Source of the DNA: Eledone cirrhosa
Lineage: Eukaryota
Direction of reading: 5' to 3'
Assembly (NCBI GenBank): GCA_964016885.1
Contig: OZ024743.1
Coordinates: forward strand, 10,912,001-10,976,000
Length of the DNA stretch: 64,000 nucleotides
In this document: piece by piece, positions 37,701 through 42,772 of the stretch
How positions within the stretch are numbered: position 1 is the stretch's first letter
Layout: each line of letters begins with the position of its first letter
Notes under the pieces: generated by a model
What the model saw: the letters and a program-made list of their open reading frames with translations, nothing else
Database searches by the model: none
What the model was told of the DNA's origin: nothing
Program-made: the position numbers and the translations under genes

Positions 37701-37889
37701 AACGAAGGAAATGTGGTAAGGAACCAGGTGGACCATAACGCACCAAAGTGCTCAATACTTGAGGTAGTAGAGTGGGTAATAGGAACCAGTAAGACCCCGA
37801 CAGCTGAGCTCAAGCCGTTTCGACGGCTAATTCTGGAATTAGCCGTCGAAACGGCTTGAGCTCAGCTGTCGGGGTCTTACTGGTTCCTA
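37701..37889. mobile_element. Mini palindromic PLE end (54-bp arms 37780-37833 / 37836-37889 plus 79-bp one-sided tail)
   Basis: Homologous to the terminus of the element at 47496; perfect inverted repeat. Confidence 0.85.
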
Positions 37890-38906
37890 CATATATATAT
37901 ATATATATATATATATATATATACATATATATATATATATATACATATATATACATATATATACATATATATACATATATATACATATATATATATATAT
38001 ACATATATATACATATACATATATATATACATATATATACATATACATATATATATATATACATATATATACATATACATATATATACATACATATATAT
38101 ACATATATATATATATATATATATACATATACATATATATACATATACATATATATATATATACATACATATATATATATATATATATATATATATATAC
38201 ATATACATATATATACATATACATATATATATATATATATATACATATACATATATATACATATACATATATATATATATATATACATATATATATACAT
38301 ATATATATATATATATATATACATACATATATATATATATATATACATATATACATATATATGTATACATATATACATATATATGTATACATATATGTAT
38401 ATATATATATACATATATGTATATATATATATACATATATGTATATATATATATATGTATGTGTGTGTGTGTTTATGTACATATATGTATGTGTGTGTGT
38501 GTTTATGTACATATATGTATGTATATACATATGTTTTTAAGTATAGATATGTGTGCGTGTATGTGTGTGTAGAAAGAGACAAATAAATTATTATAAAAGT
38601 ATTATTTGTTTCCATGATTTAAATAAACAACACACCATGACAATGCATTGCAGCCAAATCGCGGACGTTTATTGAACAAAATAATTTCATTATGAAACAA
38701 ATTCGTCACATTTATTTCGAAAATATTAAGAATTATGTATTTCTTGCTGACCCGATAAAAATGTCACATATTAGCTAGAAGCAACCACCAAGTATTATAG
38801 ATCAATTTCTCTCTCTCTCTCTCTCTCTCTCTCTCTCTCTCTCTCTCTCTCTCTCTCTCTCTCTCTCAATATTACCATCCCCTATTTATTATCTATTGGT
38901 TTCAAT

Positions 38907-39126
38907 GGCGGCGGATTGGCAGTATCGGTAGAGGGTCGGACGCCATGTTTGCCACCATGGAGTTACGTCCATTTATGGTCTGAGTTCAAATCCCGCCGAG
39001 GTTAACTTTGCCTTTCAACCTTACAGGGTCGATAAAATAAAGTACCAGTCACGCACTGGCGTCGATTTAATCGACTTTCCCCTCCCCCCAAATTGCTGGC
39101 CTTGTGCCTATATAAGAAACCATTAT
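38907..39126 (+). mobile_element. tRNA/Nin-type SINE (followed by a diverged copy at ~39146-39340)
   Basis: Same family as 597-778. Confidence 0.85.
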
Positions 39127-42100
39127 CTATTGGTTTAATTTATTGGTGGATTGGTAGAATCATTATTTCGTTTGGAAAAAAATGGTTTGCACCGTTTGTT
39201 CTGAGTCCTTGTATTTTGAGTTCGAATGCCACCGAGGTCAAATTTTCCTCTCATTTTTCTTGTTCGACAAAAAAAATTACCAGTCAAACACTGGGGTTGA
39301 TATAATCGATTTGTTCCTTCCCTAAAATTGTTGGCCGTGTCATATATTCGTTTATTAGTTTCTGTCATTGAATTGAAGTTATGCCTTCAGGAGTTTTGGT
39401 CAATTATATAGACCTTGGTTATTTATTTGGTTCTCAGTCTTATCTATCTCGTAAGGGTAGAAAGTTAAATACGACCTACGTTTATCCTGGACAAAATTAA
39501 ATGTTGTTTGTGCTAGAGAGTTTGCCAAATCTGTTCAATTCCCAGTTGAGCAACTTTTCTTTACGTAATCCCGACCCCTACTCTCTCTGTTTCTAGTAAA
39601 CATCACAGAAAAAAATGACACTGTCAAACTGATTTGAAGTGTTGTTCTTTATCTATAATTGAGCTGAAGTTGACAATCCCATCACTTGTATATCAAGAAT
39701 TACATTATACAATGTATCGTTCCTTATTTGGCTGTTGCTTCCAATAGATGGAGCTGACTCATAGAAGCTTTCCCTGTTGGCACGTTACTTAAAATGTTGA
39801 TAGTAAAGATCAAGTTCATTATTATTTAGCATACTATATACTGCTCCATTTGTCCCGTTTGACCTGATAAGTTATTGGACTTTTTCGGCTTGAATGCATT
39901 CGATCTTTAGTTTCCTCAATTAGGACAGGGGCGAAGACTAAACAACAGCAACAACAAACCTTTGGTATCTTTCATCTCATCACCAAGACGTCGTAATAAA
40001 CACTTTGAACAATTTATCTCCACCCACAACTGCTTCCTCTGAAATTCCTTTTATATCCATAATTTCTCCATCAATCACCAACACTCAAGAACCGAAACTA
40101 AACTTCGACCGTCTAGACTGTACGCACTTATTCTTAATCCTCAGTTTAAGGAGATATGGAAGGTCATGTTCATTCACCCCATAAGAACTAATTTACAAAA
40201 GAAGAAAGTTCTAAACCCTGTGAACTAAATCAAGTGTAAGCTCTAGTAGTTACTTAGCCCTATGTTAACCCTGATCATGAAAACCAACATGTAGCACGAA
40301 GGTAATCGACCTGAGCGATCCACAGACCCTCAGCTAAGTATATATAATGAAACCTTTACACAATCGCTTTATATACAAGACACACCCCATTTAAATGTTA
40401 GACTACTAACTTAAAAACTGTTGAATATCTTATGGCTTACGCCAGGTTCGAGAAATGTAGAGTGAAGGAATATACTTTGTTTCTAAAGGGGAAATGTAAT
40501 ACATTAGACTGATACAATAGAAGGGGTTTTTTTCTAACAGAATCGTGTAATGTGACTGGATAATGCCGAATCGAAGTATATTCGAAGAAGTATGGTGCTA
40601 AGGTTGCTAGATGGAGTTCATTATCGAAGCTGGGTGCCACCTTTGTCTTTAATTTGAATTCCGTTGTACTCTGATATTTTTAAAGGTAAGAATCGTATTG
40701 ATTGAATATCATATTAAATTTTCAAATATGTTAATAAGAACCGATCTACCAGCAATCCTTATATATATGTATATATATATATATATATATATATATATAT
40801 ATATATATATATATATATATATATATATGTGTGTGTGTGTGTGTGTGTGATGTAAGTATGTAAGGACTCGTAACTCCTGATGACTTAGGTGAAATTTGAA
40901 CTCAGAGCGTAGAGATCCGGAACGAATACCACAAAGAATTCTCTCTTGCGTTCTAAAGACTCTGCCAATTTGCAGCATATACATACTATACTCACACACA
41001 AAGAAAAAACTTACATAAGAACCCACCTACTTATACACACACACACACACACACACAGACACACATACAAAATCGATGCCAAACTTTCACGTTCAATGGG
41101 TGAGAATTTAAGGATTCTATATAATCTACAAAATTCTGCATGGTTAGCAAAAAAATTCCATTGTGTCGTCCTTGATTTCCTGTAATTAAATCAAGATGTT
41201 TATTTGAAGTCTAAATTGAAGAGGAGAATTAGAAACTAATTTGAAATAGTCTTTAATTTCCCAATTTTTCTTCCATGAACAAAAAATATAAAAATAAGAA
41301 TAACACTAAAGAAAAAATGAAGTCTTTGACAATTATTCGGAAATAGCCTGGATTTAATTTATTTATATTTATTTATTTATTTTGTGAAGATTATTATCTA
41401 AGAATGAAATAACTGACTTCCATGTATGCTGGACTAAATACCGATAAACGCCATATTGAAATGTAATATTCACATATATATATATATATATATATAGTAA
41501 TAATATATATATAGTAATAATATATATATGTTTTTTTTTGCATGGTTATGTTGCCTTTTATTCGTTGTTGCTTACTTTTTACTTTTATGTATTTATTGTA
41601 TTTATTTATTTTATTTTTATTATTTGTTTCACCTGAAAGGTACATACTTGTTGGTGTCCAGGTCGAATGTCACCATAGAAAATCAAGTAGTCGTTATATG
41701 TCGCCTCTCTGGCGTACGTGATCACTCAAAGGACAACTACAACCGTGTAGTTAATTTCCAGTTCACTAGTTGTTGAATACTTGAGTCGCATTTGATTTGA
41801 TCCACGTTGCTCGTTCAAAATTGAGATGAAGTTAAACAACAACAAAATAAATCCAAACTTAGAACAACTAGAATCCATATATGCAAGACAGAATAACCGT
41901 AGTGGATAAAACATATACAGGCAATACATGAAGTGAGACGTAATTGGTAAATAAAAATCCATTTGTAAATGAAAGCCATATATAGAAGCGCAGCAATAAT
42001 AACGAGCAAAATGTTTAATGACTAAGCGCTATTAAAAATGTAACATACATTCTTTTTCAAAATTAATTGTGACTTACGTGAAATCAAATCTCAGTTTAGA

Positions 42101-42558
42101 AAAATATCGAAAATAGAAAGGACTAGAATGTTGGAATTGAAATAGAATTAGTCGAGACTGGGTTTTGTATACAAATTAACAAATTAACACAGAATTACGA
42201 AGCATACAAAGATAACATTATATCACACAATCCACATCTTCAATAAAATGGAGGAAGAACAAGAATTTTAGAAACCTATCCTTGATCTTTAAACCGAAAT
42301 TCTGATAACGCCACTAAAGTATTTATATTCTTCATCAAATTGTTAGGGAAATTGTGAGCACACTACTCCATGTACATACAACAATGTAACTCTAGGATAC
42401 GATTGTTTAAACGACTGACTGACAATTTTATTAATTTTTTATATAGAAATGTGTCTCCATTTGTGTGTGTGTATATACATATATATATACATATATATAC
42501 ATACATATATATATATATTTATATATATATATATATATATATATATATATATATATAT

Positions 42559-42772
42559 AACAAAGAAAGTGTGGTAAGGAACCAGGTGGACCATAACGCA
42601 CCAGAGTAATCGATACTTAGGGTAATAGAGTGGGTAATAGGAAAAGAGTCAGGACCCCGACGGCTGAGCTCCGGCCGTTTCGACAGCTAGAGCAGTATAC
42701 TGTTGGGTTACTGCGGATCTAGCTGTCGAAACGGCCGGAGCTCAGCCGTCGGGGTCCTGACTCTTTTCCTAT
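42559..42772. mobile_element. Mini palindromic PLE end (55-bp arms 42637-42691 / 42718-42772 plus 78-bp tail)
   Basis: Same family as 37701 and 47496, with subfamily substitutions mirrored in both arms. Confidence 0.85.

Follow-up and report, generated by a model that had tools for sequence, protein, structure and literature searches.

The stretch analyzed here (the window) comprises 64,000 nucleotides of Eledone cirrhosa contig OZ024743.1 (assembly GCA_964016885.1, positions 10,912,001 to 10,976,000, forward strand) and contains two short palindromic insertions, both embedded in (TA)n, that derive from a Penelope-like element (PLE). As an initial annotation had stated, both are ends of the PLE at position 47497: the stretch at 37701-37889 is 89% identical to the 3' end of that element over 137 nt, and the stretch at 42.6-42.7 kb is 87% identical over 131 nt. 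The RNA sense of the element is the minus strand of the window, and the plus strand is therefore cDNA-like. Palindrome 1 has perfect 54-bp arms (37780-37833 and 37836-37889) with TG between them; palindrome 2 has perfect 55-bp arms (42637-42691 and 42718-42772) around a 26-nt spacer. Each arm of both palindromes carries only the 3' half of a hammerhead ribozyme (part of the helix II 3' strand, GAAA, helix III, UC and GGGGU), also as previously described. The palindromes are lopsided because the PLE tail, the first ~79 nt, is single-copy in both.

Structure of the two insertions

Mini insertion 1 (37701-37889, minus strand) consists of a tailed arm (37701-37837) joined head to head, through the 2-nt microhomology GA, to a tail-less inverted arm (37836-37889); of the tailed arm, the minus strand is the one in RNA sense. 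The single-copy tail (37701-37779, minus strand) probably lies between two reverse-transcription start sites, two such sites being known from another PLE. By motif parse, the hammerhead 3' half occupies 37794-37837 on the minus strand, with 16 nt of the helix II 3' strand (37822-37837), GAAA (37818-37821), helix III and its palindromic loop (37801-37817), UC with the predicted cut between 37799 and 37798, and the helix I 3' strand (37794-37798). Positions are given below relative to h1, the first helix II base past the GAAA complement (37822, 42682 and 47617 in the three copies in the window), with negative numbers running tailward. Mini insertion 2 (42561-42772, minus strand) belongs to another subfamily and has three pieces: a tailed arm (42561-42691, minus strand) that stops at helix II base 10, a 5-nt inverted re-copy between the arms (42692-42696), and a tail-less arm (42697-42772) that extends to helix II base 31. 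Rfam returned sub-threshold microRNA (miRNA) matches to both palindromes.

The initial annotation had placed the symmetry axis in helix II. The axis does lie inside this helix, but off its apex: the arms at 37.7 kb reach only 16 and 12 nt into the 3' strand of a 54-60-nt helix and then stop. A GCAGTA/TACTGC stem in the second palindrome had been taken for a residue of the native helix. Long copies of that subfamily have AACT, not CAGT, at this position, and their native pairing is CAGCUAG/CUAGCUG; the CAGT of the palindrome occurs in none of 31 other genome-wide matches to the stretch. Its spacer instead represents the longer tail-less arm, up to base 31, plus the 5-nt inverted re-copy of the arm tip.

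Parent element and hammerhead

A long copy of the same PLE lies nearby. Its tailed arm (47497-49138, minus strand) is 5'-truncated and includes a C-terminal piece of the open reading frame (ORF) with a CxCX5C linker and a GIY-YIG endonuclease (48488-48946, minus strand); 139 of its 153 residues (91%) are identical to the ORF of L301, a tandem copy. The tail-less inverted arm (49139-49335, plus strand) shares 92.6% identity with 47574-47775 and has lost 5 nt of helix I. At the junction of this copy (49121-49160), the end of the inverted arm is re-copied as a near-direct stretch of 19 nt.

L301 contains an open, single ORF of 718 amino acids with a reverse transcriptase (RT) plus a GIY-YIG endonuclease at its C terminus. 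No Pfam family was matched in a search with this ORF; sequence-atlas neighbours carry HTH_animal, GIY-YIG and RVT_1 on part of their members. The pseudo-long terminal repeats (pseudo-LTRs), tandem and inverted copies, and one-ended tail expected of endonuclease-containing PLEs were all present. The Hydra clade of these elements is defined by features that include DKT and a CxCX5C linker (PMC8557442, accessible text). DKT replaces DKG in the L301 ORF (HSDKTGN), a CxCX5C linker (CNCPDRSIC) precedes GIY-YIG, and (TA)n flanks the tailed end in 94 of 99 cases and the tail-less end in 64 of 75; RWR, read by eye only, stands where the N-terminal RWK motif is expected. By motif, the parent element matches the definition of the Hydra clade.

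Rfam detected no hammerhead, and the motif parse was used instead. The long copy contains a complete type I motif (47589-47687, minus strand) with helix I, a U3-A8 core UUGAAAA (47676-47682), a 59-nt helix II (47617-47675), GAAA, helix III and UC. References were natural long copies rather than a consensus. The core (C/U)UGAN(G/A)A, GAAA, UH and helices I-III could be recognized in 12 of 16 natural long arms; the other four were left unparsed. Helix III has 4 bp and a palindromic loop, native helix II measures 54-60 nt, core position 7 varies (G, A, U or C) among parsed arms, and base changes in helix II are compensatory between subfamilies. The U3-A8 core variant, and opposite-strand hammerhead pairs 100-700 bp apart, have been described in PLEs in the accessible text of PMC4209133.

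Palindromes are abundant and variable

Genome-wide figures are exact-pattern matches and hence lower bounds. There were at least 49,212 tail motifs, at least 73,009 arms entering helix II and at least 5,947 that run through this helix as far as the core, the last pattern missing some subfamilies, including that at 42.6 kb. Palindromes with a spacer of up to 30 nt numbered at least 13,761, whereas a reversed-pattern control gave none; they are therefore not chance matches. Sixteen matches of one subfamily had 11 different centres, which supports the conclusion that the palindromes were each built anew; three of the 16 shared the centre of the window palindrome. The variety of centres upholds one part of an earlier argument, that subfamily substitutions are mirrored between the arms within each window palindrome and that each copy had its own template. 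The mirroring is no proof of self-priming, because long arm pairs of up to several kb mirror their substitutions too.

Since the centres vary, the insertions also do not form a family of fixed structure; such a family, with DNA-transposon target duplications, was one of the outcomes that the initial annotation had named as refuting its reading. Its description of them as MITE-like (resembling miniature inverted-repeat transposable elements) holds for shape only: MITEs are likewise short, palindromic and high-copy, but they differ in having a fixed structure and terminal inverted repeats, whereas the centres here are variable and a single-copy tail is found at one end. Nor do the stubs have the tandem units and complete hammerheads of non-LTR retrozymes, being head to head and without the core. 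Target duplications are unreadable, as both flanks are (TA)n. Stubs often sit in the (TA)n flank of another stub, forming clusters (L067/L068, L077, L039).

Arm ends cluster in helix II

For the mapping of arm ends, the first 100 matches to the tail on contig C1 were taken. A reading of L098 and L099 as a pair of two tailed arms was rejected, L099 being the internal pseudo-LTR of a tandem; it was dropped as part of L098, leaving 99 elements. Internal deletions or self-similarity made manual assignment necessary for 15 of them. Strict trimming probably shortened about six arm ends by a few bases, and the partner arms of nine passing long elements were left out. Among the 139 arms that enter helix II, 112 end at h10-25, 16 at h1-9 and two at h26-94, and nine pass; the modal ends are h17 (22 arms) and h18 (18 arms). 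The breakpoint histogram proposed in the initial annotation is thus strongly non-uniform, with its peak in helix II.

The accompanying explanation, that nascent cDNA snaps back on the self-complementary helix and self-primes the second strand, did not survive. It needs a cDNA of both helix strands, including bases 46-54, yet none of the 139 arms ends at h46-54, in the second strand. The native helix II loop was kept in none of 117 palindrome centres (375 loci; about 30 of the 117 had been fetched for a short centre). In DNA folding, a cDNA of h1-18 had no structure (0 kcal/mol) and one of the whole helix, h1-54, gave -7.7 kcal/mol (z -4.1). The hot spot in helix II is real, but in view of the arm ends, centres and folding, fold-back is not its cause. 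Short re-copies of the snap-back type do occur at some junctions.

Read depth dropped near base 18 in two (X1 and X4) of four contig runs. This is weak evidence against an assembly artefact: depth is blind to starts, ends and strand, and the runs may be the assembly's own sample. A splice acceptor was dropped as an explanation for the arm ends, as no common upstream exon follows the arms. A secondary cluster of 13 arm ends lies at h-26 to h-22, around the predicted self-cleavage site, where 1.7 were expected (p 3e-8), which suggests that some templates were cut there; a C/G run at the same positions may contribute to or attract these junctions.

A non-native C follows helix II base 18

Genome-wide, 464 palindrome centres have both arms ending at h18 with one inserted base, and this base was C or G in 46 of the first 50, despite A being the native base at the next position. 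At the 219 centres of the same type at h17, C or G was found in four of the first 50 (Fisher p 1e-18; inserted bases were counted by hand at both). The base inserted at h17 centres was mostly the native h18 base, whereas at h18 centres it was almost never the native h19 base. A subfamily with G at h19 was considered as the source and accounts for a minority at most: only five of the 46 C/G centres belong to it, and 24 belong to three subfamilies whose long arms all (51 of 51) have A at h19. The extra C lay on the tailed arm in 24 cases and on the tail-less arm in 22. A non-A base follows h18 in 7,231 arms; the first 100, assigned by hand, comprised 55 C, 38 G and 7 T, some of the 38 G being a native variant or the mirror of the partner arm's C. 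At h19 of long arms genome-wide, C occurs in nine rows and T in 16, so C is not a subfamily variant.

Base 18 is the A of a YAGT motif (TTAGT or TCAGT in the RNA) present in 16 of 16 natural copies, across subfamilies that otherwise differ in helix II. In the long copy of the window this initiator-like motif is TTAGT at 47632-47636 (minus strand), and its A (47634) is the putative capped 5' end of the RNA. The TCAGT subfamilies fit the human initiator consensus BBCA+1BW; TTAGT we take to be an invertebrate initiator variant. Copying of an mRNA cap at a YAGT that resembles an initiator would be expected to leave a sharp native limit at h18 followed by a non-native C. An extra cap-derived G marks full-length insertion junctions of L1 (PMC11702581, accessible text), and a pseudo-LTR promoter with initiator (Inr) and downstream promoter element (DPE) is on record for Penelope (PMC2377424, accessible text).

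Tailed arms are paired with tail-less arms

Of 80 short palindromes, 77 pair one tailed with one tail-less arm; two were scored as tail-less on both sides, with an interrupted arm, and one was two-tailed. The same pairing was present in all 20 long pairs fetched (of 21), in which private changes are common to both arms. In 62 of 75 cases h-42 is where the tail-less arm begins; the other arm begins at the tail end, 79 nt away.

The two arms are often unequal. In the 77 short two-arm elements the tail-less arm was longer in 38, shorter in 26 and equal in 13, and an excess of at least 15 nt belonged to the tail-less arm in 17 elements and to the tailed arm in three (p 0.003). The tail-less arm is therefore often no copy of the tailed arm. 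Among 64 in-register palindromes, ten differ at a common allele, four of these being G/A differences at one site of possible CpG decay; 18 rare variants were on both arms and 106 on one. Arms with different subfamily tags are joined in L009, L114 and L235, and L285, one of the ten, differs at two subfamily sites; in all four elements the arms differ at two or more such sites. The evidence that arms are separate cDNAs appears to be new among the literature searched. In L273 (G000:C1:197760879-197761407), L241 and L248, several private changes appear in mirror image on the two arms, the cause being either transcription and mobilization in trans of a decayed copy or homogenization of the arms after insertion.

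The 75 two-arm junctions comprised 33 with microhomology, 12 blunt, 17 with a 1-4-nt insertion and 13 with a longer one. Ten of the 13 longer inserts share a 6-mer with a nearby arm, though about half of these are alignment breaks rather than true re-copies; nested re-copies are clear in L005, L007, L026, L029 and L126.

Long copies read through helix II

Arms that pass helix II tend to be paired with each other: 21 convergent pairs were found among 100 passing arms (79 elements), where 8% were expected (p 9e-7). From 180 matches to the junction of tail and 5' untranslated region (UTR), 30 loci were fetched, 23 of which span at least 1.45 kb of the ORF side. In these, the internal helix II was passed without a stop in 23 of 23 internal pseudo-LTRs of near full-length units (16 independent loci), which speaks against a stall caused by structure, and also against the cap-copying model developed below in its simplest mRNA form. 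The remaining seven loci were five composites, one stop near the predicted cut site and one of a different kind. In the composites, the first arm ends at h14-17 and then jumps to 64-821 nt past the tail, which fits RNAs that would start near h18 in the 5' pseudo-LTR and end early.

Jumps or starts at 58-64 nt past the tail in L323, L345 and L344 hint at a preferred RNA 3' end or a third start site. Exact tandems of three or four full units of 3.53-3.55 kb occur at G000:C1:91476607-91487257, C1:437200353-437210969 and C2:320551590-320558701, as expected of a circular or multimeric template. At G000:C2:356030076-356031893, seven tail/5' UTR junctions recur at a 299-bp spacing, possibly a retrozyme-like tandem of the pseudo-LTR.

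Discussion

We consider it probable, from the genomic sequences above, that the stubs are abortive insertions in which two cDNAs, primed on both strands of a (TA)n target, run off the capped RNA end within the ribozyme and are then end-joined, sometimes after local snap-back. The pseudo-LTR promoter would start the RNA at the A of YAGT, helix II base 18; such an RNA would mostly not be self-cut, because the catalytic core is absent from it. Two RT active sites, likely of a dimer, would begin ~138 and ~60 nt away from the cap and would usually share one RNA. Each cDNA would run off the RNA end, copying the cap as C. The two same-sense cDNA ends would be trimmed and joined via 0-5 nt of microhomology, in some cases following a local snap-back, and second-strand synthesis would yield the palindrome. 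Long copies could arise by longer read-through, from tandem or circular templates, or by strand transfer. A wider reading, possible but doubtful, is that PLEs make a retrovirus-like strong-stop cDNA: with an RT dimer starting 60 and 138 nt from the cap and a promoter inside, and splitting, the hammerhead, transfer of the cDNA to the matching 3' pseudo-LTR would regenerate pseudo-LTRs and tandems, and failed transfer would leave stubs.

Several observations weigh against run-off at a capped RNA end. Fourteen of the 139 arms align to h20-26 and one to h37, past the presumed start. A simple mRNA from this start to the 3' pseudo-LTR should leave an end at base 18, and none of the 16 full-length loci has one. 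Strand transfer is unsupported in that no carried-over C was seen in long copies (nine C against 16 T rows). TTAGT, with T at -1, misfits the human consensus BBCA+1BW, and no DPE match was found by eye at +28 to +32. The pairing of passing arms would be non-significant at a true pass rate of 20% (p 0.10). Arm pairs are mostly concordant, and two cDNAs are for this reason unprovable for any single symmetric copy. The RNA start site and its cap, finally, are predictions from DNA.

Other explanations account for part of these data. RT might halt early in elongation at the distal helix II stem of an intact RNA and add an untemplated C, the two stalled cDNAs then being joined. The end cluster does coincide with a predicted stem, and the ends are spread over h10-25 with some at h20-26; but the C is specific to base 18, the position does not change in subfamilies whose pairing differs, the two arms are correlated in passing, and the absence of stops at the internal helix II of 16 full-length loci has a p of 0.003 even at a stall rate of 0.3, which makes a stall unlikely. 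A cDNA ending near base 18 might alternatively form a tip hairpin and be copied back, with the endonuclease cutting the copy back to the TA site 79 nt in, and the asymmetry arising afterwards through central deletions. Many copies are near-perfectly symmetric, re-copied pieces are present at up to ten of 75 junctions (with nested examples such as L005 and L007), and 18 rare variants are common to both arms; self-priming has been proposed for PLE palindromes (PMC3846280) and snap-back junctions are known for R2 (PMC11371274), each in the accessible text. We nevertheless judge this route quite unlikely, given the 17 to 3 bias toward a tail-less arm longer by at least 15 nt (p 0.003), the equal occurrence of C on either arm, the four elements whose arms differ at two or more subfamily sites (L285, L114, L009 and L235), and long pairs of the same tailed and tail-less design around long non-palindromic spacers.

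It is highly unlikely that the RNA end at base 18, though real, comes from a nuclease or processing cut and that RT adds C at any run-off end. The sharp limit, arm correlation and jumps would be explained equally well, and the activity of the pseudo-LTR promoter is a prediction here; against it, the end falls at the A of a conserved, initiator-like YAGT, and ends near the ribozyme cut are unscorable for C because the native bases there are C. A MITE-like or retrozyme-like unit copying itself as a fixed palindrome could account for the very high copy number and for recurring centres (three of 16 with the window's centre; 464 of one centre type). This is hardly tenable and largely refuted by the 11 centres among 16 matches of one near-identical subfamily, the existence of identical long copies with ORFs, a tailed end lacking a terminal inverted repeat, and the grading of both arms into long insertions of the same design. 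Self-priming of the second arm on a folded helix II, as originally proposed, has almost no probability left and is refuted as the main route. A whole-helix cDNA can fold with its 3' end paired, and one of 99 elements (L066) could be a distal-stem fold-back; the missing ends at h46-54, the missing native loops and the non-native stem oppose it.

Comparisons with known systems are drawn from the accessible texts of the sources cited. The Hydra-clade PLEs with C-terminal endonuclease (Craig et al., 2021; PMC8557442) share with the present element the single ORF with RT then GIY-YIG, DKT, CxCX5C, a putative RW-type N-terminal motif, the (TA)n target, a pseudo-LTR hammerhead, an inverted 5'-truncated copy and a one-ended tail. 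The tail is ~79 nt here (in a unit of 3.1-3.5 kb) against 30-40 nt in that account, which, in the text available, reports no fixed 5' stop in the hammerhead, cap-like base or stub majority. Penelope of Adineta vaga (Arkhipova et al., 2013; PMC3846280) likewise has head-to-head inverted pseudo-LTRs, a tail on one of them, a junction palindrome, an Inr-like motif and proposed self-priming, but the self-priming is on an antisense template, whereas the ends described here fit two sense-templated cDNAs running off a single RNA end. For Anolis Poseidon PAc in vitro (Frangieh et al., 2024; PMC11167929), two adjacent internal RT starts flank the tail, both strands of an AT-rich target are cut and extended, a dimer is predicted and hammerhead cleavage is dispensable; this element is of a different clade, and inverted arms and the cDNA end position are not covered in the accessible text. 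In Drosophila virilis Penelope (Schostak et al., 2008; PMC2377424) transcription also starts within the pseudo-LTR, from an internal Inr/DPE promoter, but the start lies 46 nt upstream of an intron ending at the 5' side of helix I (PMC4209133), so that the ribozyme is transcribed whole; the start proposed here would split it. L1 twin priming (PMC11702581) resembles our model in a second RT primed from the other target end, an extra G at full-length 5' junctions and microhomology end-joining; the two L1 cDNAs copy adjacent, mostly non-overlapping parts, whereas both cDNAs here would cover the same 60 nt and thereby produce an inverted duplication. Non-LTR retrozymes (bioRxiv 10.64898/2026.07.22.740005) are also short, non-coding, high-copy and PLE-derived, but are tandem with a complete hammerhead, unlike the inverted, core-less stubs.

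The window holds further insertions of related interest. A second, different PLE at 6330-11500 has an 880-amino-acid frame (8564-11206) with DKSG, a CX4CxxC linker and GIY-YIG, is Neptune-like by motif, and has the same head-to-head design with 872-bp arms that are 100% complementary. About 20 unique bases are inverted-duplicated around a (TA)n run at 46312-46431, and about 30 bases are duplicated on either side of a (TA)n run beside the long copy at 49361-49455. A broken LINE-like element (long interspersed nuclear element) at 51540-55020 has ORF1-like, AP-endonuclease-like (apurinic/apyrimidinic) and RT-like frames, named by eye.

The element family, the inverted repeats and the idea of self-priming are already known, and the origin of PLE inverted pseudo-LTRs, the one-sided tail and tandems is stated to be open in the accessible texts of PMC8557442 and PMC2377424. 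No description of a cap-marked stop within a PLE hammerhead was found in the literature searched (most subscription papers and all supplements lay outside the search, and those of PMC8557442, which list Hydra hammerheads, may be relevant); a cap-marked fixed 5' end inside the ribozyme appears, within that literature, to be new. With tens of thousands of independent junctions, this one genome would provide a base-level read-out of the process, in which the starts are fixed at two sites, the end is fixed at one and carries a cap-like base, and both target strands are used symmetrically. Such stubs are liable to be mis-annotated as MITEs or miRNA hairpins. The data suggest that promoter and ribozyme share the same 60 bases, and that the RNA made from this promoter would be unable to cut itself.

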